Source: Cyanidioschyzon merolae (taxonomy: Eukaryota). Taken from it: a stretch of 64,000 nucleotides of DNA. The translations under genes were made by a program, and so were the position numbers. Of the stretch, positions 703-64,000 are shown in pieces (position 1 is the stretch's first letter; each line of letters opens with the position of its first letter). The notes beneath the pieces are model-generated. The model worked only from the letters and a program-made list of their open reading frames with translations. It was not told the DNA's origin and made no database searches. The stretch is from NCBI GenBank assembly GCA_000091205.1, contig AP006491.2, one strand, 5' to 3'.

Positions 703-752
703 AGACGATTTGTCTAGGGCGCGTTCGCCGCCACTGCTGAACACCGTCGGCG
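600..752 (+). ncRNA. Candidate omega-RNA (reRNA) scaffold region of Fanzor copy A (ORF 3' end to element terminus).
   Basis: In TnpB/Fanzor systems the guide RNA is encoded at the element's 3' end. This segment is conserved even in the otherwise degenerate copy C. Confidence 0.25.
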
Positions 753-878
753 TCGTTCGACTTTTGCAAAGTGTTCGGTATCGGTGTCGGTGACGGTGTC
801 GGTGCGGTGTGCGTTTCAGTTGCTGCCCTGCGCTTTCGAGCATCAGCTTATATAACTCTGTGCACACGTGAACTGCCA

Positions 879-1820: not shown

Positions 1821-2917
1821 AGGAATGCGTATCGACGGATGGGTGTACCGTGCACGAGAGGCGGCGCTGATGGCATTCACACGACCGCGGGTGCGAGCAT
1901 AGCAGCCGTTCTGACGACGACATGCGAGGGCTGACGCCCAGCATGGCAGCCTGCTCAAGCACGGGCCGCTAGGAGCCATGGAGCATTCGCCGGCCGGCCT
2001 TGTAACTTAGAGGCACCGGACAAGCCGATGCTTAGCGACGACTGCGGTCGAAAAGCGTGAAACCGCGTGAGTTCTGTGCCATGAGTGCGTGACGCTTTGA
2101 TGGAGTAGCTTCGAGTAGCGACTCGTCACTATGAGAAAGAGGTGATCATCACATCATGGCGCGTTGGTGTTCCCTGGTTGTACGGAATGTGGATACTGTC
2201 TGGGGTCCGGCGCAGCGAGTTGCCACTTGAGCGTCTCGATATTGCTCCTTTGGAGCGCGCACGCAAGCAGCCTACGAGAACGTTCGTTTGACGTATTTGT
2301 CTTCCGTATCAGCGCTGCTGCTTCACTGGAAAGCGATCGGTTCGCTTTGGTGTAACGAAGCGAGTGATGCACGAGCTCTGAACGCCCGACGGAACGAGGC
2401 TGTTGTGCGAACGCTGGCGGCGCCTGTGCGTCGCATGTCGGCTAACCAGGAGAACACCCATCGTGGAGCGCTTCTTCTTCTTCTTTTGCGCATGCGTTTC
2501 ATTCATGTATGTCAAGGTACGCTGTGTCTGTTCAAGTGCACGGATTGTGCTTGTCGTGGAGGATGGCGTACCCGGGTCTTCAGCGTCCGCAGCACGACGC
2601 ACGAGTATTAGATTTTTGTTTTGTTATCAGCTTGCGGGGAAGGTGATGAATAGCACGGCACCCTTACAGGAAGCATCATCCTGAGCAAGCACTGGTGCCA
2701 AGGAATGCAAGTCTTCAGTTCCACGTAAACGGAAATGTTTTACTGGTTCCGCGGACGGAGCGCGAGTCACCCGAGAGATCTGACTGTATCTAGCGCGGAG
2801 CATAACACTCAAGTGGCGCCTGCCCACTGGTCGTTGCTGAAGCTTCCTCTCAATTCGTGACTTGTTCTTCGCTGCAACCGCCACCGCCGCGGCATAGCGC
2901 ACGCAGCGATCCCGCAC

Positions 2918-3080
2918 CATAGGTAATGTAACTTGGAAGTCGGGGATTTGATGGATACCTCACCGTGCACTGAAAAAAAACACACAAAAAAAGTCAGAAA
3001 AGAAAAAGCGCACCATCGGAGAACGCCGGCCTAAGCAAACGTCTCGTCCGTGGAAGCGAAATCGATCCCGCACCAGCGTC
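2918..3080 (+). repeat. Interspersed repeat family R1, copy A (partial, 3' portion).
   Basis: 'GGTAATGTAACTTGGAAGTCGGGGATTTGATGGATACCTCACCGTGCACTGAAAAAAAACACACAAAAAAAGTCAGAAAAGAAAAAGCGCACCATCGGAGAACGCCGGC' matches 9017-9125, 57905-58075 and the reverse complement of 39560-39700. Confidence 0.5.
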
Positions 3081-3133
3081 CATCTGCTGCGAGATTGAGA
3101 TGTCCGTTATAGCCAGATTCGTGTCCTAGCCCA

Positions 3134-3182
3134 GTGCGTCGTTTCGCGCCTAAATCGCCACCAGAGGCGCGAAACGACGCAC
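3134..3182. repeat. Perfect 17-bp inverted repeat (GTGCGTCGTTTCGCGCC / GGCGCGAAACGACGCAC) with a 15-nt spacer; strong hairpin/cruciform ~300 bp upstream of the 3484 gene.
   Basis: Read directly from sequence. The arms are exact reverse complements. Confidence 0.6.
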
Positions 3183-3483
3183 TGCATCCGGATGCCGCAC
3201 TGCGGCCTGTACGGCTGACGGTGCGTTGCGCACGTTGCGCGCGTTGCAGCTACAAAACGTTGGCAGTGTCCGTTTGGAAACAGCGTTCCTGGACGTACGT
3301 AGCTCGCTAGCTCGCTAGCAAGCAAGGTATATTTTCTCAAGCGGTTGAATACACTCCCTGAATCCAGGGAGTCGCACGCTTCAAGCGACAGGTCGCTGCT
3401 ACAGGTGCGGACACTACTGAGCTGCGCACCGTGGACACGTCTGCGTTGCGCTAGCGTGGCCTCTACTCGTCAAAGAAACCCCC

Positions 3484-5034
3484 ATGGGTGCCTCGTCGGA
3501 TATGGTTACGGATAGGAGCACAGTCACTGCTACGGAAGCGGAGGTTGGTCGTCAGGGTCGGGCGGGGCGGGCGCTCTTCGTTGCTGGGTCACCTCCGGTG
3601 TACAGCACGTTTCACCACAACGGTGGTGCGGTGTCCATTGTAAGCGCACCGACCGGGAGTCGCGGCCTTTCGACAACGATAGCGGCCTCGTCGAGCGGCG
3701 CTTACCCCACAGCGAGTCCGTTTACGCCAACAGCGTCGCCGAGTGCGGGCACAGAGGGGCTTGGGCGCCCGTCGTCGGCGCCTGCGGGCGCCAGCGTCCT
3801 GAATGGAAGTTTTTTCGGGCGCTCTGTGGGCTTTAAGCTGCCTACGAATAAACAGAGCGCGATTTCGTCGGCGCGGGGAGGCAGCGGTGCCATCAGCGAT
3901 AGCAATGCCGTCAACGGTATGCTGGCGCTGGACGTCAAGGAGGGAAGCCGAGTCTCACCGCCGCGACGCGGCTCGACGACAGACGCCAGAAGTTGCCTGG
4001 AGTGTCCGTCAGACTGGACTGTAAGCGAGCTCGCCGCGCGGCTTGTCTCGGAACCTGATGGATGCAAAGCGACGGAGTGTGCCTGGAGTCCGCAGGTATC
4101 GGGTAGCATACCGCCGCGCTCGCCAGCGGCCTATCGGCATACGCAGACAGGCGCTGTTCCAGAACGAGGCCGAGACCATCCAGCAGGCACGAACCTGCTG
4201 GACTCGCATCGGATGTCGAGTCCTGGTATCGACCCGTCGCAGGAGTTGATATCCGTCGACAGCGACTGGATACCTGCTTCTGCTTCCTATTCAGCTGTTA
4301 GCGTGATGTCATTCTCGCCGAGCGGCAACGAGGTGGCCCGAATGGATCTGGGCCGCTCGTCCCCGTTCCGAGGGCTCTCGTTCGATGATCTGAGTATTAT
4401 TGAGCGTTCACCGCGCAAAGAACGTTTAGCGCAAATGCTGCTGTCCACACGTGGCAACAACGTGCGACGTTTCTCGCGTTCACCGCTCGGCGCGACGCCC
4501 CTGTTTAGCACCAATCCCGGGTCTCTAGCCGATGCCTCGGCGAGCGAAGACACGCGTTCGTGTCGCGTCTGTGGTGGACGACGCATACGGCCTTGTTTCG
4601 ACTGCAACGGACGTGGTCAATTTCAGCGCATTGAAGTCCAAAACCATGTTGTAGGCGGTGAAACGTGTCGCGCATGCCGCGGCACAGGTATGATCGACTG
4701 CCCCGCCTGTGCTCGAGAGTTGTATAGAAAAGCGCGTGCAGCAGCCGAAATCAAGCTTGAAACCGCCACCCGTGATCAAGCGGCACCAGTCTCGCTGCCC
4801 GCTGCATTGACATCACGACAACATGAACCAGCGGCTGCCACGCCTCATGCCATGGGAACGGAAACCGCGTCGGCGCACAGCGTGCAGGATTCGCTTGCCG
4901 CTGCCGCGACAGAGCATGTGGTATCCAGCGTCTCTGCGAATGCTGAATGGGAACCCCAAACCTCAAACGTTGCGGTTGGAAAGCTGACAACATGTACAAC
5001 AGACGGCCATGGTCTGATTCCGCTCTCCTCGTGA
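3484..5034 (+). CDS. Ser/Ala-rich protein with a C-terminal DnaJ-type zinc-finger domain (four CxxCxGxG-like repeats).
   Basis: 'CRVCGGRRIRPCFDCNGRGQFQRIEVQNHVVGGETCRACRGTGMIDCPAC' has the CxxCxGxG spacing of DnaJ/BSD2-type zinc fingers. The rest is low complexity, so gene extent is less certain. Confidence 0.55.
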   Translation: MGASSDMVTDRSTVTATEAEVGRQGRAGRALFVAGSPPVYSTFHHNGGAVSIVSAPTGSRGLSTTIAASSSGAYPTASPFTPTASPSAGTEGLGRPSSAPAGASVLNGSFFGRSVGFKLPTNKQSAISSARGGSGAISDSNAVNGMLALDVKEGSRVSPPRRGSTTDARSCLECPSDWTVSELAARLVSEPDGCKATECAWSPQVSGSIPPRSPAAYRHTQTGAVPERGRDHPAGTNLLDSHRMSSPGIDPSQELISVDSDWIPASASYSAVSVMSFSPSGNEVARMDLGRSSPFRGLSFDDLSIIERSPRKERLAQMLLSTRGNNVRRFSRSPLGATPLFSTNPGSLADASASEDTRSCRVCGGRRIRPCFDCNGRGQFQRIEVQNHVVGGETCRACRGTGMIDCPACARELYRKARAAAEIKLETATRDQAAPVSLPAALTSRQHEPAAATPHAMGTETASAHSVQDSLAAAATEHVVSSVSANAEWEPQTSNVAVGKLTTCTTDGHGLIPLSS

Positions 5035-5571
5035 CTCGCTGGCCAGGCGTTGAGACATCTCCGCATGCTCAATGCGTATCATACGGACCGGTGATACAGT
5101 GCAAGCACGCTGGCGCTACATACCTTTCACAGGGCAGCAGGCTGAAATGGACAACGTATCCTACGCAAGACAATCGAGTTTACAGTGGTTCCTCTGGGTG
5201 GCTCGTAGTACGAGAAGCCTCCGCTCGCCATGAGCTATGAGCGCGCGTTCACGCGGCGAGCACGTCCTCCTCCTCCTCCTCCATGCACACAGGTCCGCCG
5301 CAGCCCTGTGCTCAATCATCCCCATATCCATGAGCGCTGGCGACGAGGCACCTCCTATCTCATTGGAAATCGCTACGAGTCGCTTTGCAGACAGTTTGCA
5401 TCACGAGCTGCACAGGAGCGATCGCGTGCGTCGGTCGCACGACGCATCTCATCTACCGACCGTATGGATAATTGTGTGTCGATACAGTCCCACGAATGTA
5501 TCGTTGTGTTCTAGTCATGTAAAGATTACGCGAAACATCGTGAGCGCACTGATCAGTGGCGTTGCCGGTGC

Positions 5572-8499
5572 TTATTCCAACCAGAGCATCGGCTCTAGCG
5601 TGACATTCGGCGTCGCCTGTTCCAGCAGCGCCTGTGAGGCAGATCCCGGGATACCGCTTCGATCGCAGGCGAGCAGCGTCGCCAGGACTTCGACATGATC
5701 CGAGGCGCTCGGCTGCGATGGTGTTGTCGAGCGCTGCGTCAGCAGTTGCAGACGCAATCCCTCGAGGCGGGCAGCCGCGGTTTCCCGCCAGCCTGCGCGC
5801 AAGCCCGCCGCTAGAAACTCGGACGTGCGCAAAAACTGCAACAGACGCCCGACGCAAATCACCGGGATGGAAGGCATCGCTTGTTCCGATGCCGATTGCG
5901 CTGACGCGTTTCCGTTGCCAGCGGCTGGAGTGTGGACAGGGAGCTCCAGCGGTGCCTGGGAAAACGCGGCCGCCAGATGGCGACCGAGCGCGTGCCCGGC
6001 GCGATACAGCGCTCGCTGGGCGATGCGGTTCCCGGTTGGCGCCCGCATGTTCGTGCCAGCCTGCTCGGCAACTAGGTAGCCGAACTCTACCATCCGGCAG
6101 CGAGGCAGTGGTCCGCGATACAGGCAATGCAGCAGCGTTTCCAGATCTGCGCACGCAAAATGTGTCAAGGCGAGCGCGAGCAGTTCATCGGCAGCTGCCT
6201 TGCAGGCCGCACGATCCCACGGCTCACTCGAGCACTCAAAGCGCATGCCGTCGAGGGCACACAGCGCATACCGCAGCGCATCCAGACCGAGTACAAAGGG
6301 GGAACCCTCGTCTCCAAGTAGTGGACCATAGCCTCCGATTCGAATATCTAGGCCACCGGCGATGTCAGCGGAGACACGAAGATCCTTGCGCATGCGCGGA
6401 TCGGCGACCAAGCGACACAGACAGCCGCGCTCGCTGGAAAGCAGCAGTAGCGCGATACCTTGGCGCGATGCGACTGGGTCAGCGGGCGCACTGTGGCCGC
6501 GGATGGTGCCTCCGCTGCCTGCGAGCATGCTCAGCGGTGACGGCCGCAGCACGCTGATAAGCGGGAGGTTCACTTCATCCCAGCAGACGACCGTTACAGG
6601 GCAATGAAAGCGCCACTCGAGACGCTCGGCTACTGCACGTTGATCCGCGCTTGATCGTAGACTATCGATGACGAGGCCAATCCCAGCGAGGCGATAGTCC
6701 GCAGCGATCGCTCGTCGTCGTCGTGATTTGCGTCCACAACGCTGAGCGATTTGGCAGAGCACACTGCCCAGGTTGAACGCGTCGAAGGTGTCGTGCCAGT
6801 CGCCATCCAAGCTCGCATCATTAGCGGGCCCGAGATGCGAGCCCTCTCTATCGCTTGCCTGCAGACAGCAACGAATCCAGTCCGAAAGACGGCGCTGATA
6901 GGCTTGCATCGTACCATCCCGGTGGTGCAGCGGTGCCTGCCCGGAGCCAGTGCGACTGCAACAGCACGCCCGCGGCTCCATGCCGCCGTCGCCGTCGCCG
7001 CTGCTGTTTGTTGTCACCGTGCAGCTGCGACTCGGGGAAACGCGACGGCACCGTGTGCGATAAATGTTTGCTAACGCATACGCTTCTAGCAAAAGTATTT
7101 CCACTGCCTGGAGCAGGCGTTCCATCGGCGTTGCGTCCTGTTGTCGCTTTTGTTCTGAACTGAACGACAAAGCTTTTTCAGTGAACTGGGCCAAGAAGCG
7201 ACATGCTGGCATATGCAGCCTCGGCGTGCTCGCGTGCGCCGGCGCTTCGGATATCTCAGCCACACCTGGGCGCGTAGGGTATTCCTCATTCGCACTAGAC
7301 TCGGCGACTGCACCCAGCTGGGGTTCGCCAGCCTCGTCGCCGCCTAAAAGGTCATCGTGTGCGTCCGCACCAAACGAAGATGACGTAACTGCAGTTAATG
7401 GATTCGCGAGTAGCGCCGACGATGCCGTCATGTACGGTACTACGAGCAGGTCGACGTCGTCGACGTCGAAATTCGCGTCCACCGGCTCCAGGAAATCCGT
7501 TCCCTCGCCAGCAACCGATTCAAACCAATGCGGTTCGGTGTCCTGCACACGACTTGCAATGGCATCGTTCCCGCGTTTCCGGCGCTGGCCAGTCCCGGTT
7601 GTCGCCAGAAATCCATCCGATTGCGTTGGCGCTTGTGTTCGGCGTTGGTTCGCTGATTCACTAGATGGGCGCTCCTCGAGCGGCCCTGTACTTGGCGAGG
7701 ACGGAATCGTGCACGTCGACGAAGACGAGGCCTTGGTCGGCCTCCCGCAGCAATCGAGACCACGAGCGACCCTAGCAGGCTCCGATGCCGGTGGCGGTGT
7801 TGCGTAACTGCAGAAGCTGCGCACGCCATCCTGAGGTAGCGTGCTCGACAACCCTGTCGCAACGTTGCCAAGCTCTTCGTATGCCTCGTACTGGTCCAGC
7901 TCCCGCGGTAGCGATACTTGCTCATAGAACCAGGGATGCGTCACGCTATCCGGGTTTTGAAGCTGCACATAAAACGAGTCACCCCGGGATTGCATCGCGC
8001 ACGACGGGTATCTCGAGCTGCTGTTACGACCTACAGTCCGACCGGAACGCTGACTCGCGCAGGCGCCAGCGACTGCAGCGCCGATCCCTGGTCCAGTGCT
8101 GCAGGAACAACGCGCGTGCTGCTCCCGCAGTGCGAGCGTTCCCTTCGTGCTTTTCCCCCCGGAACCAGGGTCCACACCAGTTTCGCGGCTATGTGCACAG
8201 TTACAACGCAGCGCGTCTGTAACGTCTACGAGCGCCACATGACACTCGCGGCCGCGTATCGCCAAGCCCAGCACCACGACGCACGTGTCAGTTTTCCCTC
8301 CTAATTCGTCATCATCCCTGCCCACTTGATTTCGCAGCCCCGGTGCTTTCTTCGTCATAATAAGCACAAGCAACCTAGAAATAACGAATAACGGCTCTCT
8401 TACAGGCACCGTCACGAGTTGTATGGCACCACTTGTCGAGGCGGTACCTGCGCAGCGCGCCCGCCATACCACTCCCACTCGACGACCGTACCAGCGCAC
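5572..8499 (-). CDS. Protein with a C-terminal BadF/BadG/BcrA/BcrD-type ATPase (N-acetylglucosamine kinase-like) domain and a long low-complexity N-terminal region.
   Basis: C-terminal ~330 aa match the NAGK family: 'GIALLLLSSERGCLCRL...GGLDIRIGGYGPLLGDEGSPFVLGLDALRYAL' and 'LYRGPLPRCRMVEFGYLVAEQAGTNMRAPTGNRIAQRALYRAGHALGRHL' (cf. 'GSGGWGHMMGDEGSAYW', 'LYRDF..CRF..FC..IAEGA..GD..S..IF..AG..LGRH'). The N-terminal 600 aa are unrecognised and may be over-extended in GC-rich DNA. Confidence 0.45.
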   Translation of the reverse strand: MRWYGRRVGVVWRARCAGTASTSGAIQLVTVPVREPLFVISRLLVLIMTKKAPGLRNQVGRDDDELGGKTDTCVVVLGLAIRGRECHVALVDVTDALRCNCAHSRETGVDPGSGGKSTKGTLALREQHARCSCSTGPGIGAAVAGACASQRSGRTVGRNSSSRYPSCAMQSRGDSFYVQLQNPDSVTHPWFYEQVSLPRELDQYEAYEELGNVATGLSSTLPQDGVRSFCSYATPPPASEPARVARGLDCCGRPTKASSSSTCTIPSSPSTGPLEERPSSESANQRRTQAPTQSDGFLATTGTGQRRKRGNDAIASRVQDTEPHWFESVAGEGTDFLEPVDANFDVDDVDLLVVPYMTASSALLANPLTAVTSSSFGADAHDDLLGGDEAGEPQLGAVAESSANEEYPTRPGVAEISEAPAHASTPRLHMPACRFLAQFTEKALSFSSEQKRQQDATPMERLLQAVEILLLEAYALANIYRTRCRRVSPSRSCTVTTNSSGDGDGGMEPRACCCSRTGSGQAPLHHRDGTMQAYQRRLSDWIRCCLQASDREGSHLGPANDASLDGDWHDTFDAFNLGSVLCQIAQRCGRKSRRRRAIAADYRLAGIGLVIDSLRSSADQRAVAERLEWRFHCPVTVVCWDEVNLPLISVLRPSPLSMLAGSGGTIRGHSAPADPVASRQGIALLLLSSERGCLCRLVADPRMRKDLRVSADIAGGLDIRIGGYGPLLGDEGSPFVLGLDALRYALCALDGMRFECSSEPWDRAACKAAADELLALALTHFACADLETLLHCLYRGPLPRCRMVEFGYLVAEQAGTNMRAPTGNRIAQRALYRAGHALGRHLAAAFSQAPLELPVHTPAAGNGNASAQSASEQAMPSIPVICVGRLLQFLRTSEFLAAGLRAGWRETAAARLEGLRLQLLTQRSTTPSQPSASDHVEVLATLLACDRSGIPGSASQALLEQATPNVTLEPMLWLE

Positions 8500-8829: not shown

Positions 8830-9165
8830 CGCTGCGCTGCGCGTTTGCATCGGGTGCTGATCCTCGAGCCGACGCCCTCTGTGGTATAGAAAAGCTGTTC
8901 TTGCTCAATGAAGTATCTGCTCCAGCGGCTAAGTTCCCAAGGCGGATGATTAGGTTAGGTACTAGGCACACACGACAGGACGTACGAAACGACCAGAATA
9001 TCCGAGAAGAAGTATAGGTAATGGAACTTGGAGGTAGGGCGTTTGATAGATACTCCACCTCGCACTGAAAAAATAACACAAAAAAGTTTGAAAAGAAAAA
9101 TGCGCATCATCGGAGAACGCTGGCACAAGTAAACGTTTTGTCCATGAAAAACATCCGGTGCTGAT
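8830..9165 (+). repeat. Interspersed repeat family R1, copy B.
   Basis: 'CCTCGAGCCGACGCCCTCTGTGGTAT...GTACGAAACGACCAGAATATCCGAGAAGAAGTATAGGTAATGGAACTTGGAGG...CACTGAAAAAATAACACAAAAAAGTTTGAAAAGAAAAATGCGCATCATCGGAGAACGC' aligns to the copies at 2918, 16030, 39520(-) and 57590. Confidence 0.55.
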
Positions 9166-11605
9166 GCGCGTCGCCACGTGCGCCAATGCATGCATGCGGG
9201 CGCCGCGGGAGGCTCTCGCCAGGCTCGGGAGCGCGCCCCCATGTGTCAGGTGTTGGCGCTGATCGGATCGAGTCACCGGCGTATGCGTGGGTGCGTGCGT
9301 GTGCGTGTCTGTATGTGGATGAGTATGGAGGTTGCAGATGGTGCCGCTTGCTGCCGATGAAGCATTCGCTGGAATATCCTTGTGGCGTCGTTGCAGCTGA
9401 CGTGTTATTTTCGCTACTTATCAGTTAGCGCACGGCAGCGTAGAACGTGGTCATTTTGGCGTTCGAGAGCCCGCTCGAAGCGGTGTACAGGAAGCGCAGT
9501 TGAGCTTGTGAGACGGGAACGTCTATGTTAGTCCAATGTTGCTGACCTGGTTGTCGTTCTGGATGCGGTTGTGCTGTGCGGGAAGCGCTTCGTGCCATTG
9601 CCGGCTCATCCCGAATTCGGCTGGGACCGGTGCGTGGTACGTGGATGTATGCTTTGCATGCCATCAAGACTGAAGGATTTCGCACTTGCCATCTCCTGTC
9701 GAGGCTTTTTTAGGTCGTCTGCAACCAGCTGAACGTTGACTGTGTGTAGGCGTCTCAGCGCGGATGGTTTTTTTTGATCCGTTATGCGCAATCTCATGGC
9801 CAAGTTGTTCGGGCGCTGGGCAGGCGCCGACACATCAGCGTGTCCAGCATGGGGACAGGCGCCTGGAGCAGGTTCGCCATCCGATTGGTCACCCGTTGGA
9901 CTGCTGCACCCTATGGTTTCTACAGGAAGATGAATCCAGGGCTGAATGAACGTAGAGTCCATCGAAGCTGACCAGCGGTCTCTCGCCCGACTTCAGACTC
10001 CAATCCTGTATCCGAAGATAATATCTGGATCGATGGAGCGATCTTGCAGCCTCGGAAAACTCAGCGCAGACCGTGAACACTCGCGGTATACCTGCATTGC
10101 CCCGCAGCAGCATGCGCATCCCGCGCTCGGGCAGTGCAAATGAAGTAGACTCGGTATTCAGTGGGAACATGGTTGTCGCCAGACATTTGTGCAACGCCGC
10201 CCGTATGCATACCTGGACGGTAGGATTGCCCGAGCAGTTTCCGTCGCAGGAAGCGTGCGAGGCATACGTGCAGCGTGGCTGGACAGGGTCCCGGGCGGGC
10301 GGCCTCTGCTGCAGGGTGAGTCTGGAACGACGCTTCTCGTAACGCTCAAGCGCATCGTGCTGTCGATTCGCGTCAGGGATCAGACGATCGCATGAAGCAT
10401 ATGAACAGTGGGAGTCTTGGAAGCGTTTGTGGGCGCACGACCTCCGAATTGAGCCCTGCTGCTGCTATCCTTTGTATTGAACGCTGTACTGTCCGGGATT
10501 TCAGGCCTTTTTCGTGCGCCGCGTCATGTGCTGGGTGTAGCCGTGCGCGACGCGTACGCGGCGGTCCTGACGCGCTGCAGCACTACGAGGTTAGAGGCGC
10601 TCGACTTTATTGTGTTTCACTTTCGCTGCGTCGATGCGAATGGTACTGCGCATTGCGTAGGAGGAGATCGAATTCACGATGCAGTGTACCGTATAGATTG
10701 TGGACGCATCGCCTATAGGATATATATACTTGTCTGAGCAATGCACGGAGGACCGCATTCTTCATTTAGGTCAGTCATACCATACTAGTCAGATTGATGA
10801 GGAACACTGAAAGAAACAAGTAGATGCGCTCTGTGTCAGAAATTGGTATTCTTAAAGATCGCTTGAAGTCGATAGTAGAAAACGACCTGTTCAGCAAGTC
10901 ATGAAGAGCAAAAGCGACAATAATAGCCATCATGGGCGTCTCTGTTTCTCAACTGCTCTTTCGTGTCGTCCTGTAAACACTGGGATACAGTCGCAAAAAG
11001 CGAGTCCAGTTACATGTACGACCATCTTCCACCGAAATCGCAACTAGCACAGAGTCTCTGGAACTCAGCGATCGGTACGAGGCACCGCATCGTCTGTTTG
11101 TTTCTCCAGTGGATGAGACTTGTTTCGGAAGGCACGGTCGGAGTGTATAACGATATTCCCGGAGAAGGGAGCCCGTTGTACGTACGATCCAAGTCGAAGA
11201 GAACGACCACATCATCATTTGTTCTGGATGGAGTGGATTCATGTGTTGGCATCCGTTTCACTCGAACAGGAGGCGCATACAACAGCATCAATCGCTTTGC
11301 TGAATGATTGAAGACGTTTCCCTGACACCTGGCGAGGTCCTTCTATTCGACAACGTGGCACTTCACCATTCCCTTTGCGGTCGAGCTTTTTTCTCTTCTA
11401 TCTGGTAGAACTGCTTTTCATTCCTCCGTACGCTGCATGATTCAATCCCATCGAATAAGTGTTTTTCTATCGTGAAACGTAGTGATCGCTCCAGTGGGCG
11501 AATCCCTGAAGAGTGTTTACCACGGTGACAAAATGAGGAACGTTTCGTCTTTCTTCCGCAAGCCCTTCTCGCTCAGGGAAGGTCCTCACCTAATGCCATA
11601 AACAA

Positions 11606-12010
11606 GTGCGTTCGTTTTTGAAGGACAAAAACCCAAGGGAAAGGCATGCACATGTTAGTCAGGGATCCTGGCGGGTCGATGTCGCGGGCTACCAGGAAAA
11701 ACGACAAAATTCTCTTCTCGCCTACCATCGAGCGAAGATGCGCAAGTATCCGAGAAGAATAGGGGATATAGGCAATGAAACGTACTTGCCCGAAAGTATG
11801 ACGACGAGACTGCAGTGGCACAGAGGGCACGAATTCGAGGACTCCTTTCATCGGTGAGTTCCACCAGCGGCAATAAACGCATGGAGTTCGTGAACCGAGA
11901 CTTTAACACCGCCATCAATATCAGACGATGTGTGGTGCTGAAAATTAGGACCGACCGGCTGACGAGAGCGAATCTCCTGGGCTAGCCCCTCAGATTCGAA
12001 GTGCACACGG
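11606..12010 (+). pseudogene. Degenerate remnant of a Fanzor/TnpB-like gene (RuvC-II to RuvC-III region only, stop-interrupted).
   Basis: Translation gives 'RVDVAGYQEKR' (cf. '[11 protein letters not shown]') and '[49 protein letters not shown]' (cf. copy A '[49 protein letters not shown]'). It lies in a low-GC island at 10.7-12.1 kb. Confidence 0.5.
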
Positions 12011-12374
12011 CGAAGCTGCAGCCGAGAGCAGGCGACCGGTTCGAAAAGGCTGGTGACGCGTCTGCGTATCGGTGGATACATGCGCATTCAATATTTGTAC
12101 AGCTTTGTGCTTTTTTAGGACGATCTGAACAATTAGATATCCTAAATGGGCCGCAAAGCATCCATTGCGAGTGATGGAAACAGCATCAGCGACAAAACTA
12201 CATCTAATGATTTCTAAATAGATCTTATCAAACTAAACGAACAAAACGATCCTTGGCCTCATCAGGTTCCTAGATGCATCATGGACGCCCCCCGCCACGC
12301 GCAATCTTTCCCGCGTTTTTCCGCTTCGCATTGGAGCTGCAGAGACGGCACCGAGTACTTGCACAGAGGAAGCC

Positions 12375-16029: not shown

Positions 16030-16345
16030 TCCGTCCCATTAAAGTCAGACTTGGATGTTTGAAGAAACGAGTAGGTGAGCGTGTGAGCGCTGGTCCAATA
16101 GCATGCGTTCGCTTCGCGCTCCCGCAGGCAGTAGGTCTGTCTGCGCAACTCGCAGGCTCCCAGAATGACAATGAATCCCGACCCTGTGCCGAATAAGGCA
16201 CGCCTCCAGCCGACACCCTCTATGGTATGAGAGAGCCGCTCTGCTGCCGTGCCACACCTGCACCAGCGATAAAAGCGCTCTGGTGGATACTAGCGACAGG
16301 CACTCGGCCTCAGAACAGCACCTATAAAACGACCAGTACACCCGC
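16030..16345 (+). repeat. Interspersed repeat family R1, copy C (5' portion).
   Basis: 'TTCGCGCTCCCGCAGGCAGTAGGTCTGTCTGCGCA...CCCAGAATGACAA...GAAACGACCAGTACA' matches 57660-57900 (copy E). Confidence 0.5.
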
Positions 16346-16734
16346 AAGCAGGTCCAAGTCAACGCTCTTTAAAATAGAGCGAAGCATGATGGGCGCGCTC
16401 AGTGCTTTCGATGTCCATCCCGCACAATCTGGGATCTATGGTTCATAGGAACGTTGAATCAAAATAGAACAAAAAGACTAAAACTGCCCACGATGAACGC
16501 TCCGATCTCGTCGGAGGCACGGCCGGGTGTCGTGCCGCGAGGTGCGTGCTCGCGGCGCCGCGCCGTGCGCTCGCGGCTCGACGCGGCCTGGATCTGCAGC
16601 CGCTGGATTCGCGGAAGACTTTGCACTGTAGGCGTGTGCAGCCGCAGGGAGTTGTGTGTGTGTGCTTGTGTCTGCGCGTGCGAACACCTTCTTGTTCAGA
16701 CTTTGACACTTACTTAGCTTGAGCGTTTTCCAGC

Positions 16735-35139: not shown

Positions 35140-35468
35140 CTGATGCTGCTGCTGCTGCTGCTGCTGATGCTGCTGCTGATGCTGATGATGCTTTCGGAGG
35201 TGGCGCTCATTGCCGCCTCCGCTTTGCGATTTAGCCGATCTCCCGTGCAAGGTGGCGCTGCTGCTGCTGATGATGCTGCTGCTGCTGATGATGATGCTGA
35301 AGATGCTTTCGGAGGTGGCGCTCATTGCAGCCTCCGCTTTGCGATTTAGCCGATCTCCCGTGCAAGGTGGCGCTGCTGCAGCAGCTGCTGCTGATGATGA
35401 TGCTTTCGGAGGTGGCGCTCATTGCCGCCTCCGCTTTGCGATTTAGCCGATCTCCCGTGCAAGGTGGC

Positions 35469-35499
<31 letters not shown>

Positions 35500-35568
35500 A
35501 TGCTTTCGGAGGTGGCGCTCATTGCCGCCTCCGCTTTGCGATTTAGCCGATCTCCCGTGCAAGGTGGC

Positions 35569-35599
<31 letters not shown>

Positions 35600-35610
35600 A
35601 TGCTACGTTC
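35140..35610. repeat. Tandem array (4 units of ~96-116 bp) containing (GCT)n/(GAT)n tracts and a conserved 9-bp-stem hairpin; ~250 bp upstream of the isoamylase start.
   Basis: Unit 'GATGCTTTCGGAGGTGGCGCTCATTGCCGCCTCCGCTTTGCGATTTAGCCGATCTCCCGTGCAAGGTGGCGCTGCTGCTG...' starts at ~35187, 35303, 35399 and 35499. Confidence 0.75.
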
Positions 35611-39519: not shown

Positions 39520-39900
39520 TTCGCGCACGCGTGATCGATTTTTTTTCATGGACAAAACGTTAACTTAGGGCAGCGTACTCCGATTATGCGCATTTTTCTT
39601 TTGTTACTTTTTTTTTTTGTGTTTTTTCAGTGCGAGGTGAGGTATTCATCAACCGCCTACCTTCATGTTACATTACCTATACTTCGTCTCGGATATTCTG
39701 GTCGTTTCATACGTCCTATCGTGTGCCTAGTGCCTGGCGAAAGCGACAGCAATAGCGCCTATAGCGCCGGTGCGGTCGCTGCACGGAGACAGAACGGCGT
39801 TGCCGTACCACAAAGGGCGTCGGCTCGAGGCGTGGTTCACTCGACGTAGAATCGGGTCTCGTCGTCAGTTTGTGCTCGGAGAGTCTGCGGATGCAGGCTT
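39520..39900 (-). repeat. Interspersed repeat family R1, copy D (inverted orientation).
   Basis: The reverse complement of 39560-39720 reads 'AGGACGTATGAAACGACCAGAATATCCGAGACGAAGTATAGGTAATGTAACATGAAGGTAGGCGGTTGATGAATACCTCACCTCGCACTGAAAAAA...', matching copies B and E. Confidence 0.55.
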
Positions 39901-41405
39901 GTCTTCGTTGCACGACACGCTGGAGAAACTTGGCTGTTAGGATGAATCCTGGGAGCCGCCTCTCTCCTTCGTGATCATGCATGGAATGCGTTGTTGTCGG
40001 TTGGCAAGGCGGATTTGTGCTTGACACCCACCAGTGGGTAGGCGCAGAAAGCAGTGGGCCCGTGTGCGCACCCGATTCGCTGGACCTTCCGCCTAGAAGG
40101 TAGCGTGTGAGTTTGTTCGCCACTAATGAGCGCTGAGGCTCGGTTAGCGGACCATCAGTTACCAGTGCTACACTCAGAGTGAGTGTCCGGCCTTCGGCTA
40201 CCACGCTGATGCCCAGCTGCTGCTGTCCTTCAAGGAGCTCGCTGCGCTCCTGCTTCCAGCGCGGGCACTGTAAGCCAAAAATATGTCAGCGTCTCGGGGA
40301 TCTCATCCCCACTCGCGTGATCGATGCAGGCGCACACCTTGCACGCATGCGCTGGAGACACGTGTACGCACGGAGGCGCTGTGCGGGGCGCTGCACGCCC
40401 AACGCCATCTGCGTGCGGGCGAGATCGCAGCTGCCACGTGGCATTTGCGCATCAGTGCTGCTGATGCCGATACCTGCTTCCGTGCGCCACCGGGGAACCT
40501 CGCCGAGCAGCGTGATCGGCCACACTGCCGCCGTGTGCGTATGAATGCGTGTGCGTGTGTGTGTGTGTTCATTTCGCAACCCGTTTGTTGCGTGTGCATT
40601 GTTGACGAACTGCGCATTTGCCTATCGCCTAGTGAAAGGGGCGTTTACGAGAGCACTGCAGGGTTTCGCGGGTGACACTCTTGTTGTTTTACGTAAAAGG
40701 CGTTATTTTCCAATGCTGTCGTTCGTTTCTGCGTTGTGGTGGCATGCGCGACACGGTGTGGATATGCCGGGGTTCTTGCCCGGAGTGCGCTGCGGCCTCT
40801 CGTCTGGGCTTGTTCGGAACCGAATGATATGGTCGGCTGCCACAGCGGCCAAGGGTGGGAAACCCAAAGAGGCTAGTCGCGAGCAGGCGAAGCGCCCCGA
40901 ACGCAAGGACGACGACAGGGGCTTTCAAAAGGGTGGCGGCGGTGGTGGCGGTGGTGGTAACGGCAGCGGCAAACCTACCAAGCGCGACAAGTAATGTGGA
41001 AATAGCGGCGTTTAGCGGTGGCAAGACGGCGTGCAAGCGTTCGGAGGAGCGTCATGGAAGCCTGTATGCGGGTGGCGTGCAGCTAGGTTTCCGGTCAGAG
41101 AGCGTTACGTAAACGAGAACTGGTCTTCGTGACATCGTTTGCTGCATCATTCGCCATTTGGACGTCCAGAACAGCGCTTTCGAGCTCGCATATGCCGTGT
41201 TTTTTCTCTCTCTCAGTCGCGTTGGTATGTCAGCAATGCGAAACGATTGCGAGAGCGGAACCGGAAAACGCGTATCCTCGCATACACGGCTGGACGTTGT
41301 GCAGCCACGAGGCGGCAAGTCGCCAGGCACCTCAGTTCCCTGCATCGCTGGCGCGATACTCCTTACCTAAAGGTAGCCGCGCTCGGGTTGTCCGCCGCAT
41401 TTTCC

Positions 41406-54354: not shown

Positions 54355-56173
54355 TCAGGGGCGCTCCCCAGAACACATCACAACGAGTGCGCACGCTGCT
54401 AATGCGAGAACGCGCACAAACCCCAGCCACCCGACACGCTGTGTATATAATAGGGACAAACATTTTGTCCGCAGCGTAAGCACTATATACTGAACTGAAA
54501 GAAAGAGTTGGTAAACTTCGTTCACGCACCGCGCAGTGTCGTAGTCACCGGCCGAAATGAAGCTCGTAAGAAACGAATGAATGGAGGGCTGTAGCTCGCA
54601 CGGCCGGCGGCGGTGGCTCGCACGGCCGCCGACGGTGTTCAGCAGTGGCGGCGAACGCGCCTTAGACAAATCGTCTCCACCTGATGTGCAGACGCCTCCC
54701 AGTTTTTTGGACCGGCCACCCACTACTGCTTCCAGCTTTTTCTTATATAGTTCCACTTTGGTAGGTTGTCCAACAAAGTTCTCTCGTGTCCAGTCTGGAG
54801 GCCTTTTCTCCATTACCGCACATCTTACATTGATCACTGCGTGAAAGTCTCTGTTCACGAATTCCATCCGTTTCTTGCCATCATTGAGTGTACTTACTAA
54901 TGCAAGCAATCCTCTAAATTTCGCCCTCCTTTCCATTTGCCCCTCCATCAGCGCTCCGTATTTTTTTATATCCTCAGGACTCCTCTGGCACTTTTCCATC
55001 CCCACTCTGTGATGCGTACACCCCAGTTCGTGGTGTGTATACGATGTTCGGAACTCGTCTACAGGTATCGTAGCGAAACGCCGTGCGCACTCCTTGTACG
55101 TTCTTGTCGACGGAGCTGGTGTAGTCCCTTTTTTGGACGCCCAGCGCTCTGCTCCGTACGCTACGACGAGCCTCTGACTTTCATTCTCCTTGAGGGCGCT
55201 CAACGCATTGAAAAAGTTGGCAAATGCACGCAGCTTACCACAATACAGATTCTTACGCAGACGAGCCCACCGGCGCTTGGTGTACTCTTCCCACAGCGTA
55301 TCCCAATGAGCAACGCGGACCTTCCATGGACTCCCGAAAAGCTTCAAAGTCCGCTCCTTGACTCGTCACCTCGCTCAAAGCTTCTAGGTGATCCTTCATT
55401 CCTGAATTCCAGCTCTCGATTTTCTTCCCCGCATTCATGATTCCCGATTCTCGATAGTATCTAGCTCTCGAGAACCTCAATAGACGCATGTCTTTCTGAC
55501 GTAAACTACCGTCAGTACCATCTTCCGCACACTTCGGTGCTGCGATGGTGATGATATTTGTGTTTCCGGGGTCCGCGCCAACGACAAAGTCGATATCTTG
55601 CACTTTCTGCGTCGCAGGAGCCGCCTTGTTGTTATCTTCATGCTTCGTCGCGTCAACGACCAGGTCGTTATCCTCCACCTCCTGCATCGCAGGATTCGCC
55701 TTCTTCTTCTCTTCATGCTTCCCCGCGTCAACGACAAGGTCGTTATCCCCCACTTCCTGCGTCATAAGACCCGCCTCCTTCTCATTTCCTTCCTTCGCCG
55801 CGTCAACGAGAAAGTCATTATCCTCCAACTCGTGCGTCTCTGGATCCTCCTCTTTGTTTTCTTCGTTCTTGGTCACGGGCGTAGCCGAGGGCGGACCAGG
55901 ACGATCTGTCTTCAAGCGCCGATAGTGTACACACATGGCTACTCCATCGGTTTCGATCATCCCAGTGAATATCTTTTGTTTGCTCACTCTCAGGCGTTTG
56001 AAATTGAAGATGTTCTTTAAGTACGTCTCCCGGTTTTCACCGGAGAATTCTTCCCTGCTGACACTGAATTCGGGACTGATCTCCTTCATGATGCCGTAAA
56101 GGACTCTGGAGTCGATGGTCACAAAATGTGACTTGATATTGGACATCGGAATCACGTTAAAGCGCTTCCCCAT
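54355..56173 (-). CDS. TnpB-like (Fanzor-type) RuvC nuclease, copy B. Exon 1 is 56173-55257, the intron 55256-55199 and exon 2 55198-54355.
   Basis: RuvC-I '[18 protein letters not shown]', RuvC-II-region '[11 protein letters not shown]', zinc-finger region '[28 protein letters not shown]', RuvC-III '[20 protein letters not shown]'. The same GTAAGA/TTGAG intron as copy A joins the two ORFs. A 1-bp change in an A-run relative to copy A moves the stop from the 54676-equivalent to 54355. Confidence 0.6.
54628..54800 (-). ncRNA. Candidate omega-RNA scaffold region at the 3' end of Fanzor copy B.
   Basis: Same conserved 3' terminal block as copies A and C. The adjacent flank (54600-54627) would supply the guide if the element works like TnpB/Fanzor. 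Confidence 0.25.
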
Positions 56174-56199
56174 TAGGAAAGCCTTCCGTCTCTCCTACT

Positions 56200-57104
56200 C
56201 TTCATTTGTCTTTTCGCTCAGCTTCATCTCCGCTTCGCGTTCGAGCTCCGGGTCCAAGAACACAAAATACCGTACGACGATGCGATAGTATCTCCCCTGA
56301 TCCTTTTTCAACTCTGATATCTTTTCTGTTGGATTCACCAGCCCCAAGATTGCACGGCGCTCTTGTATAACCGAACGGATGAGGGAATTCTCATTTGTGC
56401 TCCTGCGTGACGTCTTCTTGTCGACAAATTCGACCTCATCTCCATTCTTACGATCTTTCGTAAAGCCATTGGTAATCGCCTATATTCATTTGAGAGAGCT
56501 GCCTGGGTAGAGTGCAAAAACGGCGCGTACCATGAAACGTTCGAGTTTCACGATCACGTGATTCTCCAGTTTCGTGATGTACTTCGTCGCCCCTTATATG
56601 TAAACATTCGAATCACCCCTGTATGGAGTACTGTTGAAGCTGTAGAGGGGATGTTTTTCGTAAAGGCCATGCACTAGCACATTTTCCCTCCGCGTTTCCG
56701 CTGTGCCAAGCATCAGGTGTCGAATAAATGTCTTACCGAAAAAATCGTCCGGAATCTCGACCGTTTCCAAGTGCGCCACGTTTTCGTACATCTCTCTCGC
56801 CAAATGCATCAGTCTTGACGACGCCTTGAAAATACTCATGGAGTACGAATCGAAACGTTTTTCGATAGCGTCTCACAAATTTTCCCTGTAAGGATGGTTG
56901 ATATGTTTAAGAAGACGGGCTTTCACCAGCATCTCGTCGAACAGTCGTCTTTCTTGCCGCCTTCGACTTAGGGCCTCCCCTTTTGCTTCTTCTTCTTTTC
57001 CTGTTCTTCTGGACTCGGCTCTGTTTTTTGTTTTTATTTCTGGCAGCAGGCGACCCTGGACCTACAGAATCGTCGACTTGCTTTTTCATAGCTTTTCTTT
57101 TCAT
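56200..57104 (-). pseudogene. N-terminal region of the copy B Fanzor gene (K/R-rich NLS-like segment plus putative WED-like domain), interrupted by in-frame stops.
   Basis: 'MKRKAMKKQ...RNKNKKQSRVQKNRKRRRSKRGGPKSK' (56907-57104). Downstream, '...FMVRAVFALYPGSSLK*I*AITNG...' is homologous to the continuous 164-aa ORF of copy C (62119-62613, 'FMIRVAFVLYPGIFREAMLAIIDG'). Confidence 0.4.
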
Positions 57105-57589
57105 TTTTTTTGTGTGAAAAAGAACGCTCTTTGAACCCTTCTATTATATACTGCGAGAAATCAATTGAATATGTTTACTTGAGGGTAGAGACACAATCGA
57201 ACTGGAAACTATGATTTGTTACGACTTCCACGCAAATACAGCTTGCCCGTTAGAACATCAAGAAAACGTGTCGTCACGGTCGCGTTTCTCTTCGAAGGCG
57301 ACAGATGCGTCGTGTCTCGTAAGTGCCATACTTGGAGATGCACGTATCGAGCGCGCCATACAGGAAAAAGGACAGTGACCTACGATTTACAAGAAACGAT
57401 ATAAAATTTTTTCCCGCTCTACGATAAGCGTTTAAGGGGAAATAGATCGCCGTACTATCGGAAGCTTATGTTCGAGGCGGAAGGTCCCGCGAGCCGGTCG
57501 AGTCTACCGGGCTAGAGCTCGGTATGCCTCTAAAGTGGCCGCTGCCGCTGCTGCCGCTGCTGCTGCAAGACCTGCGTAGCTCGTTCGCA

Positions 57590-58095
57590 ACGCATTTTAT
57601 CCTGAGACTATGCACAGGACGCTGCGTTGGGCCTCGCCCTGGTCGCAGTGGAATCCTAGTACAGCACTTCGCGCTGTCGCAGGTAGTAGGTCTGTCTGCG
57701 CATTTTGCATGTTCCCAGAATGACAAATAGCCCTGATTCCGGTTCAGGTGAATCATTCCTCGAGCGGACGCCCTTAGTGGTATGGCAAAGCCGTTCTGTC
57801 TCTGTACAGCACCTGCTTGAGCGGTATAAGCGCTACAGCGGGTGCTCACAACAGGCTCGGCGCTCGATAGAACATACGAAACGACCAGTATATCAGAGAG
57901 GTAGTATGGATAATGGGACTTGAGGACAGGTGCACTATGATCGAGATATCCCCGGAAGCCATCGTGCGTTCCGAATTCTGGGATGCATGGGCAATGCAAA
58001 CGTTCTTTCATCGAAAAGAAAAAAACGCTCCGGAGGCGGACTCGTCATCGAGACGCGCATCGCTCTGGATCGAATCTCCGGAAGGCGCTTCTGGG
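57590..58095 (+). repeat. Interspersed repeat family R1, copy E (longest, ~0.5 kb), abutting the 5' side of Fanzor element copy B.
   Basis: Aligns to copy C over its 5' half ('GCAGGTAGTAGGTCTGTCTGCGCA...CCCAGAATGACAA') and to copies A, B and D over its 3' half ('...ACGAAACGACCAGTATATCAGAGAGGTAGTATGGATAATGGGACTTGAGG...GAAAAGAAAAAAACGCTCCGGAGGCGGAC'). Confidence 0.55.
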
Positions 58096-59479: not shown

Positions 59480-60644
59480 GCATGTTGCCTGTGCGTGGTA
59501 ACGCGTTGGATGCGGATCGTTTACAGGGACGTTAATCAAATGCCTCGTCGAAGTGCGGGCTCTGCACAAGCGTGCTCGGTCTGTACTCAAAATAAGCGGA
59601 TGGACAAGGAGGACTGAGATATGCTGGATACCTATGCCAAACTGGTAGGTCTTGGCAACGTACAAAAGGTGTGGAGGGGAGCGTCCGTAACCATCTCGGC
59701 GAGCTTGTTCCAAATGGACAGCATTGCTGAAGGACAAGGTGGCACCAGAATTGCAGCTGCAGAGTAGCGTTCGCCTACTATCATCATTGAAACCTGCTAG
59801 TCGTGTCATGGATACCGGACGTGATGGAGTTCGCATCCGCCACAGCGAACAAGGATCAAATCAACTGACTCAAAATTCTCCAAAGCGATGCGTGGATGAA
59901 AGCTGGCGAAAGTTGCGGGTCTGGTACGGCATAACGTACGCTTACCCGGATGCCGATATGCATCGCGCCTGGCCCGAGATACCCTGGTTCAGGTCAACCA
60001 TTCTAAACCGCAGGATAAAAGTATGCCATGATTTAACGTTCACTGATGTTGGCTGGACGGCATCGCAACGCTCCACGAACCTGGGCGCGGCGCCGAAGGC
60101 TTAGTTTCCGAGTATGACCGTGACAGACTTTGCTCTATGCGTACGGATCTGGAAAACACGAGCCGGAAGTGTGCACCAGCACGCATGGGCGACGAATAAA
60201 ACCCTTAAAGCGACGTACGAACAGTGACCTAACGATGCAAGTGGAACGAACCGAATACCCTGAGGAAGGTATGATGGCACAGCTTCTGCCTTGAGAGCGG
60301 GTGCACAAGCGCTTCAGTGCGGTAGAGGCGAAATCGTGCCGAAACGCCCGATTCGCGTCAGCGCTTCCAGTGACCAGGAATGTGCCTCCAGCTTCTCTGA
60401 CGTTCCTCTCGCGTCCCAGCAATTCTGGTACAAAGTTTCGCTCTATGCAGCACAGGCGCTGATGCAGCGCTCCTTCGGAAGCCCTGCCTTCCGCAAACTT
60501 GCACCGAAACGTTCCGTACGCAGCTATTGTGGTTATGCTTCAAAAGCAGAACGGTATTGCAGTGTCTTGGAAGCGTCGGCTCGAGCTTCTGAGGCCGAAA
60601 CGTCTCGGACGACCGCCGCACCCGACGACAACAAACATCTTTCA

Positions 60645-62831
60645 AAACAAAAACGTTGCTGCCGGCAGTGTACAGTAGTGGCGGCAACCGTGCCCTAGAC
60701 AAGAAGTCGCCAACTGACGTGCAGACGCCTTCCCGTCTTTTCCGACCTGCCACCTACTGTGGGTACCATTTGTTCTCATATAGTTGCAGTTCAAGAGGTT
60801 GTCCAACAATGGACTCTCGTGTCACCGCTGGGAGTCTTTTGTCCATTCCCGCACATCTCCGTAGATTGATTGCAGCGTTAAGGACTCGGTTCACGAACTC
60901 CATACGTTTCTTGCGGTTGATAGTCGTACTTACTAGTGCAAATAGTCCACGAGCTTTCCCCCTCCTTTCCATTTGCTCTCCGGTCAGCTGTCCCTTACTT
61001 TTTTATATCATGACGACTCCGCTGGCACTTTTTCCCTCTCCACCCTCTGAAGAGTATATCCCAACTCGTCGTGTGTAACGATGTTCGGAACTCACCCACA
61101 GGTAACGTAGCGAGACCCAGTGCGCACTCCTTGCCCATTCCTGCCGTTGGAGCTGGTGTAGTCCTTTTTTTTTCGGAGCCCAGCTCCCTACACCATATGA
61201 ATCAACGAGCCTCTGACTTGATTCTCTTTCAAGGCGTTCAATCGATTGAAAAAGCTCGCGAATGCGTGATGCTTACCACGGCACAGATTCATACGCAAAC
61301 GAGGCCACCGGGGCTTTGTATACTCGCCCTACAGCGCCACGGAATGAGCAACACGAACTTCCATGAATTTCAGAAAAGCTTGAATGTCCGCTCGTCAGCT
61401 CGTCACCACGCTCAAAGCCTCCAGGTGATCCTTCATTCCTACATTCCACGTAACCATCTTCTTCCTTGCATTCATTATACCGGATTCTCGATAGTATCTC
61501 TCTCTCTCGAAAACCTCAGCAGAAGCATATGTTTGTGGCGTAAGGTGCCGTCAGTGCAATCTTCCCTTCGCTTGTGAACAGCGATGGTTATGATATTCGT
61601 GCACCAGGGACTAAGGCCGACGCCAAAGTGGTTTTCATGGGGCTTATACGTTCCATAGCCCGTCAACCTGTGTTCGTTCTTCGGCAACGCCCGTAAAGAA
61701 GACGGGATAGGACGAGCTGCCTTCAACCGCTGATGGTGTACACATATGTGCGCCACATCGAGATCGATTGTTCCAGTGAATAACCTTTTTTTGGCCGGTT
61801 CGGGACGCTTGAAATCGAAGATATTCTTCTAGTAGGCGTCCCGATCTTCACCGGAGACCTATTTGTTGATTACATCGAGCTATGGATAGATCTCTATCCT
61901 GAAGATGCAAAAGGACTATGGGGTCGATATTCACAAAATGTGACTTGAACGCGCATAACCGACCGACATTGAAGCGCATCTGGAGAAGACTTCAATGTCG
62001 TTTCTCGCACTCGTCTTTTTTTCCACACTCAGCTCCATGCCGACCCTGCGGTCGAGGTCTCGGACCGAAAACATGGAGCAGGGCAGGATGAGAGAGTAAC
62101 AACTCTCTCCGTCGTTTCTCATATCCGAGAGTTTTCTCTTGGGCTGACATGACCCAAGACCGAACGATGTTTTAGAATAGTGGCGCGAATTACAGGAGCA
62201 TCATTCATTATCCTGCGTGATGTCCTCTTGTCGACGAGTCTGATCTCCTGTTCATGCTGGCGATCGTTCTTCATACCATCGATGATTGCAAGCATCGCTT
62301 CGCGAAATATGCCCGGGTACAGCACAAAGGCGACGCGTATCATGAAACAATCGAGGTTTGCCATTTTATGGTTCCTCATATTCGTGAGGCACCTCTTTGC
62401 CCTGTAGTCGTAAATGTCTGCGTCACCCTTGTGTCCAGCACCGAAGACGAGGAATTTGGCGTAATTCTTGAGGAAGGCATGCCCTCGCTCACTTATCCCC
62501 GATGTTTTCCCATTAAAAACAATCAGGTAGTTGATAAAAGTCTTTTGGAAAAATTTTTCCGGAAACATCACTTTCGCGATAAGCGTTACGTCCCGATGCA
62601 GGTCGCTGTCCAAATGCCAACGTCCTAAAGAAAAGCTCCAAACATACCCGGCCTACGATCCGCCACGGTTTCTGATAGCGTCTCGCAACAATCAGTCGTA
62701 CGGATCATTGATATGTTGGAGAAGATAAGATTCCACCACCATCTTGTCGTACAGAAGTCACAATTTCGGCCTTCGATGTAAGGCCCCCCATGTTGCTTCT
62801 TCTTCTTTTCCTGACCCTCTTCGCTAGGCAA
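60645..62831 (-). pseudogene. Fanzor/TnpB-like gene of copy C, pseudogenised. It lacks the 3 extra tandem repeats seen upstream of RuvC-I in copy B.
   Basis: Homologous segments lie in different frames and carry stops. The RuvC-I aspartate context is degraded to 'GLSPW'. Confidence 0.5.
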
Positions 62832-63310
62832 TATGTCTCATTTCATTCTGACATCCGGCAGCACCGGCCACCCCAAACCCACTACATCATACTACATAAG
62901 TGTCAGATTTTTTGGGAGAACATCTCATTGGACGCTTCTGCTTTGAACGGCGAGAATCTGGTGAATAGAGTTACTTTAAGATTGGAACGCCACTGAAGCC
63001 AAAACTATACTTTGCTACGATTCGATCGCAAATACAAGTGGCCCCGATAGAGCAGTCGCTCCAGAAGAGGTCATTACCGCGTTTTTCTTGATCGGAGAGG
63101 CGCACGTTGGGTGACGTGACGGCCAGATTTCGCGATGCGTTACCAGGACGCACGACAGAGAAAATGCAAAAAAATTAACCAATATGCACAAACAGGATAG
63201 CAAGTACTATTGCAACCTAGTGTAAACGTAAAGAAGATGATTTCGCGTATGGTCAAAGTGTTACATTTAATCGGGAGGTCTGCGTGCCGCGAGACTACCG
63301 GCCTGCCCTC
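60645..63310 (-). mobile_element. Fanzor/TnpB-carrying mobile element, copy C (degenerate, multiple frame disruptions).
   Basis: Fragments 'RMEFVNRVLNAAINLRRC' (60754-60972), 'GLSPWCTNIITIA' (RuvC-I remnant, 61475-61756), 'RFNVGRLCAFKSHFVNIDP', an intact 164-aa N-terminal-domain ORF (62119-62613) and the K-rich 'GQEKKKKQHGGPY' segment (62625-62831). The 3' terminal ~100 nt are conserved with copies A and B. Confidence 0.55.
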
Positions 63311-64000
63311 CGTGTGACTTTCAGTGGAGAGTGATATGAGACACTTGGGCAACTCATCCAAAACGCAATTAATTTCGGGACTAGGAGCAGGCATGCTGCG
63401 TCTGAGCACTAACACCGTCGCGGTGAACAGATAGTACGCCGTTTTACGCTACCGCATGCAAATCGTCTGCAAGATCCGCTTGGAGGCTCCAAAGAAAATA
63501 AATCTCCCTGATACCATGTAGCATGAACCAAGCCCCTTCCAACGCGCCCAGTGGTATGTCTGAGCTGCCCTGCTTCCGGAGTGCACCCACAGCGGCGATA
63601 GAGAGGCTACAACGGGTGCTCAAGGTAGGTAAACGGCGCACGATAGAAAGTCAGATACAATCAGTACAGCCGAGATCAGGTAAATGCGACGAAAAGTACC
63701 GAAACTGTTCAGCGTGACGAAATATTTTCCGAAACAAATATCGATCCGGCAATCTCGGCGTCTGGTCAGTAAAAAAGGTTCTGCCGAAACAAACAAAAGC
63801 AAAGCGCTGGAAGGAGATCCATAAGGGCACTGGTGTGCTGGATGTAGATAAGACAGATGCGTATTTGCTCAGATCGTACCGCCGGAAAAAAACCCAAACA
63901 AACCTGGAATCGTAGACATCGCTCTGACAGATGCTTTTGCTCTGAGAACACTGCAGTAATGGGGCATTGCGTCGAATGGGGGAGTGGGGGAAATGGGGGG

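Follow-up and report, generated by a model that had tools for sequence, protein, structure and literature searches.

Elements in the window

The DNA analyzed here (the window) is a 64,000-nucleotide stretch of Cyanidioschyzon merolae contig AP006491.2 (assembly GCA_000091205.1). It contains three copies of one element, designated A (plus strand), B (minus strand), and C (minus strand). The G+C content (~56%) and the long uninterrupted open reading frames (ORFs) are consistent with C. merolae, and the RACK1 ORF adjoining copy A (879-1817) is identical to the C. merolae 10D protein XP_005536426.1/BAM80140.1.

All three copies were assigned by BLASTN alignment of the window to the consensus of CMe-1A, taken from the supplement of Bao and Jurka (2013, Mob DNA 4:12; PMC3627910). 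CMe-1A is one Fanzor1 family described in C. merolae; it is old, with ~150 copies at roughly 80% identity to the consensus and no TIRs, and its 3169-bp consensus has a single long Fanzor1 ORF, coding for the 734-aa CMe-1 protein (PMC3627910). Copy B (54625-58013, minus strand), a pseudogene, matches consensus positions 1-3147 at 80.6 to 87.9% identity, and this full-length DNA similarity places it in the family; against the published CMe-1 protein it reaches 68 to 84% identity (tblastn). Copy C (60639-63758, minus strand) is full length and heavily decayed (consensus 32-3166 at 72.9%; 64 to 76% identical to copy B). Copy A (1-752, plus strand) is the 3' part of an element (consensus 2392-3145 at 87.7%; ~97% identical to copy B 54627-55377) that is truncated by the start of the window, and its repeat region lies outside. 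A 5' end of the element near 57250, first placed there from the homology of copy B with copy C and with metagenome contig L001, was dropped, as the consensus takes copy B to 58013.

Copies A and B are inverted copies, 97 to 98% identical and ~54 kb apart, with a disabling +1 frameshift in common; their similarity ends near the 3' end of the element (A, 752; B, 54627). Since the similarity stops at the end of the element and the frameshift is common to both, it seems that an already-dead CMe-1A copy was duplicated as a single unit, presumably through mobilization in trans, and not as part of a larger segmental duplication.

Two metagenome contigs (L004 and L005) have an identical RACK1 gene, but just upstream of ~780-788, ~30 bp beyond where copy A ends, they part from both the window and one another; in L004, a TMA7 gene lies there. 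This break at the copy A junction could be a structural polymorphism or a chimeric assembly. The two contigs were tried as the empty site of copy A and rejected, as their upstream sequences match neither the window, each other, L001, nor the CMe-1A consensus, and no target site for copy A was definable from these RACK1-flanking contigs.

Smaller traces of the family also occur in the window. Short matches to the 5' 635-bp part of the CMe-1A consensus, a part also found in TE-N2_CMe (PMC3627910), lie at 8861-9038, 16109-16455, and 39656-40102, and 11604-11940 holds two small pieces of the coding part. A separate tandem array, unrelated to CMe-1A, occupies 35157-35602 and holds four copies of a 134-nt stretch (89 to 95% identical to the reference copy) that start ~97 to 115 nt apart and overlap. 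Rfam and tRNA scans of the window gave no matches, and neither the 306-aa ORF of copy B nor the LDH ORF had an exact match in the contig index.

Repeat array of copy B

Copy B contains four head-to-tail units of 75 bp (25 aa) at 55568-55867 on the minus strand, three of them extra and one native, encoded in a minus-strand ORF (55253-56173). Tandem Repeats Finder reported a 75-bp period with 3.5 copies at 55573-55838 (78% matches, score 301), and self-BLAST of the repeat region gave matches at offsets of 75 and 150 (E = 1e-41 and 1e-22); an 80-bp segment of the CMe-1A consensus (2117-2196) matches copy B four times. From the repeat calls and a comparison of units, extra unit 1 was placed at 55793-55867, extra unit 2 at 55718-55792, and extra unit 3 at 55643-55717 (all minus strand). 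The native unit (55568-55642, minus strand), which ends in VVGADP and is the sole unit in copy C and the CMe-1 consensus protein, runs into the RuvC-I motif GADPG; the codon for the aspartate of this motif, invariant in an alignment of 75 family sequences, is at 55571-55573 (minus strand). The first-pass annotation had described a tandem triplication of a 25-aa segment directly before the RuvC-I motif, with a single unit in copy C. Both repeat analyses and the ORF translation, which equals the peptide quoted there, confirm an in-frame tandem multiplication; the position, next to the RuvC-I aspartate in a protein of the TnpB/Fanzor type, was borne out as well, and so was the single unit in copy C, where 71 bp (61602-61672) are the counterpart of 299 bp in copy B (55563-55861).

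In the register used (13 aa of linker, then 12 aa of lead-in to the strand), each unit combines an acidic linker of ~13 aa with a lead-in of ~12 aa (Q-x-V-x-D-N-D-[FL]-V-V-x-A) to RuvC strand β1. The extra units end short of the catalytic DPG motif. Together they hold 25 D/E and 8 K/R in 75 residues, for a net charge of about -17.

The first-pass annotation further read the array as a recent expansion private to copy B that makes decoy RuvC-I-like β-strands in the nuclease. Copy B does have three units more than copy C in the same window, and every extra unit keeps the hydrophobic D-N-D-[LF]-V-V lead-in pattern to β1. Against a recent origin, however, the units of copy B are mutually only 68 to 76% identical at the DNA level, and against decoys, none of the extra units includes DPG.

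Copy B as a pseudogene

The decoy reading also supposes a protein, and copy B cannot encode one. Aligned with the CMe-1 protein, it has five in-frame stops, two frameshifts, and a one-residue deletion in the RuvC-III motif. One stop, in NEE*ERRKAF (minus strand, 56195-56197), stands where relatives have W and the consensus has S; the others are at 56873-56875, 56594-56596, 56486-56488, and 56480-56482 (minus strand). The +1 frameshift (55317-55321, minus strand), visible in the alignment of copies A, B, and C, is due to an extra G in CATGGAAGGTCC, for which the consensus reads CATGGAAGTTCG. A second frameshift lies near the C terminus at the approximate position 54697-54709 (minus strand), where the tblastn match passes from frame +3 to +2. 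Since the +1 frameshift is common to copy A and its out-of-frame tail also terminates the products of contigs L001 and L008, it is real and older than the split of A and B. With copy B dead, the array does nothing at this locus.

Identity of the protein family

Pfam scans of the window ORFs and their close homologues gave nothing significant (TNB, E = 0.23), and sequence and profile searches of close family members against the PDB gave no matches. Two distant relatives reached by profile search (P0150 and P0181) pass the Pfam gathering score with a Cas12f1-like TNB domain. A repeat-free relative, P0108, was modeled with AlphaFold2 (pLDDT 88.8, pTM 0.85); it aligns with 56% of the repaired copy B translation at 47% identity. 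The top seven Foldseek matches of this model in the PDB were the Fanzor1 proteins SpuFz, PpFz, and GtFz (E = 1e-17 to 1e-15), with TM-scores of 0.62/0.70 against SpuFz over ~680 aligned columns; Cas12f and other Cas12 proteins trailed the list at E = 1e-4 or weaker. The Fanzor1 fold (WED/REC/RuvC) was thus found for the model of this relative, not for the decayed copy B itself, and with the sequence searches silent, the link between the family and Fanzor comes from the fold comparison only.

Residues invariant or nearly so across the family are the D of (G/C)(A/C)DPG, the E of VDEFRT, and the D of NRDxNAAxNI. The Fanzor motif is given as D-X(125,275)-[TS]-[TS]-X-X-[zinc finger]-X(5,50)-RD (Bao and Jurka, 2013). 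The repaired copy B translation has D201 (GADPG), T376-S377 (EFRTSY), and R441-D442 (NRDF), with a gap of 174 residues from D to TS, and so agrees with the motif; the D-X174-TS...RD spacing is the same in the CMe-1 consensus. A C4 zinc finger (OrfB_Zn_ribbon/TNB) was not found between TS and RD: CMe-1-type sequences have HH...C...C between EFRTS and NRD, and relatives have 0 to 2 Cys there. The canonical C4 zinc finger is missing from the whole CMe-1-related clade, for which the precomputed Pfam annotations list only PF26935 (DUF8286, a domain of unknown function).

Distribution of unit number

A protein search recovered 144 relatives, nearly all from JGI metagenomes. Units were counted from the distance between the fixed anchors IETDGVA and NTNIIT, which falls into classes 25 aa apart. 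Among the 75 protein clusters that could be scored, 21 have no extra unit and 54 have at least one (one extra unit in 17 clusters, two in 11, three in 18, four in 6, and five in 2). At the DNA level, a scan of metagenome contigs found 256 related stretches; 80 loci were kept, and all 79 that could be scored carry one to six extra units, a count biased to repeat-bearing copies, since two of the six peptide patterns used in the search lie inside the repeats. More distant relatives (45 to 54% identity and below) have no extra unit.

The same four units as in copy B were found in L008, which is collinear with the copy B locus (97% identical over 6.8 kb), and in L009, which also matches this locus. 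Contig L001, closer to the 3' part of copy A than to copy B (97.6% versus 95%), has the same array with 95 to 100% identity unit by unit. Between subfamilies, unit-by-unit orthology is blurred. The array is therefore not specific to copy B, as the first-pass annotation had it: it recurs in the two copy B orthologues and in a copy-A-like contig, and arrays of one to six extra units are widespread in the family. The finding that was to speak against copy specificity, repeats in other family members, was thus largely made, although the number of units does vary among copies.

These contigs also bear on the quality of the assembly. Tandem repeats are error prone in assembly, and family contigs frequently end within the element (L001 and L002), so the array might be a mis-assembled or wrongly expanded repeat. 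An identical four-unit array is present, however, in three independent metagenome assemblies (L001, L008, and L009), and with units that are 24 to 32% diverged, collapse or mis-expansion is unlikely; we give an artefact almost no credence.

None of the relatives found is a fully intact gene with repeats. The longest open frame, in L011, has 778 codons and three extra units; it was examined as an intact master copy and rejected, as it is without the consensus ATG and the last 35 codons. L011 holds two CMe-1A copies head to head (17-1614 and 2936-5651), the second of which contains this frame.

Age and mutability of the array

The units of copy B resemble those of the paralogue L011 (up to 87% identity) more than they resemble each other, which indicates that the array was inherited and did not arise in place; the "recent" of the first-pass annotation therefore does not hold. 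The array predates the split of A and B, which are now ~2.7% divergent.

Unit number is polymorphic elsewhere in the family. L006 and L007, with the same neighboring genes and 99.1 to 99.5% identity over 11.6 kb, differ in array length (5.0 versus 3.0 copies), as do L058 and L073 (7.0 versus 3.0 copies; 98.8 to 99.1% identity over 11 kb). Copy number thus differs between alleles at two other loci, as in a variable number tandem repeat (VNTR). The polymorphism asked about in the first-pass annotation accordingly stands for copies and alleles elsewhere but not for the locus of copy B, where the two orthologues (L008 and L009) showed no difference in length. A second repeat was noted on the L007 contig, which also carries L040: downstream of a DEAD_2 helicase gene, a 119-bp tandem repeat at 11555-12031 (4.0 copies, 98% identity) was split by the gene caller into three 38-aa ORFs. 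The L006 contig ends inside this array.

In L058, an in-tract stop codon (GPVT*KVHDNDF) is present three times. Its duplication in a dead gene argues for a DNA-level process independent of protein function, and this weighs against a second reading, in which the acidic array is a selected functional module of the active CMe-1 Fanzor1 (a tunable spacer or an auto-inhibitory, DNA-mimicking linker) and copy B is a decayed descendant. Such a module would fit the strongly acidic charge of the extra units, the conservation of a D-N-D-L-V-V-D-A core across units and copies, and the presence of three extra units in the longest open frame (L011, close to the P0003 protein described below). Yet unit number ranges from 0 to 6 extra units with no preferred value, neither the published consensus protein nor any more distant relative has an extra unit, differences between the units of copy B are mostly non-synonymous (0 to 4 synonymous versus 11 to 16 non-synonymous codon differences per pair), and in L058 the array grew in a copy already carrying the stop. 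We regard selection for a functional module as unlikely.

Predicted structure of the repeat tract

A relative with three extra units, P0003 (~75% identical to copy B), was modeled with AlphaFold2. Residues 380-470 of the model have a pLDDT of 23 to 37 and no secondary structure, and RuvC strand β1 (residues 479-485) is formed from the native unit only. The repeat-free P0108 model has a short loop of low confidence at the corresponding site (401-407, flanked by strands 386-394 and 416-421); no other internal stretch near RuvC-I scores low in this model. The models thus predict that the extra units form a disordered acidic loop, not decoy strands. Considering also the distribution of the array, the divergence of its units, and the state of the gene, we judge a private expansion with decoy strands to be very improbable. 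Taken as a whole, the interpretation in the first-pass annotation is partly supported.

Interpretation

We consider it highly probable that the array of copy B is an old, inherited, length-variable coding minisatellite in the disordered linker of a decayed CMe-1A copy. Head-to-tail multiplication of a 75-bp unit, with replication slippage or unequal recombination as the likeliest mechanism, would have occurred at a site that appears to be a disordered loop between the last pre-linker strand (taken as part of the WED domain) and the RuvC core. Because the unit length is divisible by three and the site is in a disordered loop, extra units would just lengthen an acidic flexible linker. Unit number drifts between 0 and 6 extra units, probably neutrally, among paralogues and alleles, and goes on changing in copies that are already pseudogenes; copy B took its three extra units from its progenitor element. 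An active protein presumably tolerated the insert.

Copy B matters little in itself: its transposon family has been on record since 2013, the copy is decayed, and its repeat is an ordinary in-frame minisatellite in a disordered linker. The published consensus, however, hides an array of 0 to 6 extra units, which is relevant to reconstructing or synthesizing an active CMe-1 Fanzor. At the sequence level, the loop before RuvC-I appears to accept insertions of 25 to 150 residues, a hint for protein engineering. A stronger proposal, that the array marks an insertion-tolerant, length-tunable pre-RuvC-I linker modulating the active CMe-1 Fanzor1 (as an auto-inhibitory DNA mimic or a spacer), strikes us as quite unlikely; if the linker were indeed length tunable, it would also indicate a position at which domains can be inserted into Fanzor proteins for engineering.

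Comparison with known systems

The word "tandem" is absent from the main text of Bao and Jurka (2013; PMC3627910), and the length-variable array therefore appears to be undescribed there; literature searches on Fanzor with "tandem repeat", on PF26935, and on the JGI samples found nothing relevant. The element itself is already known; beyond what was published in 2013, the sole addition is the wide occurrence and polymorphism of arrays of 0 to 6 extra units across the family.

CMe-1A (PMC3627910) has the same host as copy B, and its consensus aligns with copy B end to end and with copies A and C too; the published consensus DNA and the 734-aa protein have a single unit, whereas copy B has four. 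Compared with the solved Fanzor1 structures, SpuFz (PDB 8GKH and 9CEU), PpFz, and GtFz, the P0108 model has a similar overall fold at a sequence identity of only ~15%, and the CMe-1 family shares with them the RuvC D...E...D residues and the NRDxNAAxNI motif. In contrast to these proteins and to the Fanzor1 definition, members of the CMe-1 clade lack the canonical C4 zinc finger, despite which its describers classed CMe-1 as Fanzor1 (Bao and Jurka, 2013). With coding minisatellites (VNTRs), the array has in common in-frame head-to-tail units of tens of base pairs and a copy number that differs between alleles with >98.8% identical flanks; unlike coding minisatellites in general, it lies inside a transposon-borne nuclease gene, directly before the first catalytic strand.
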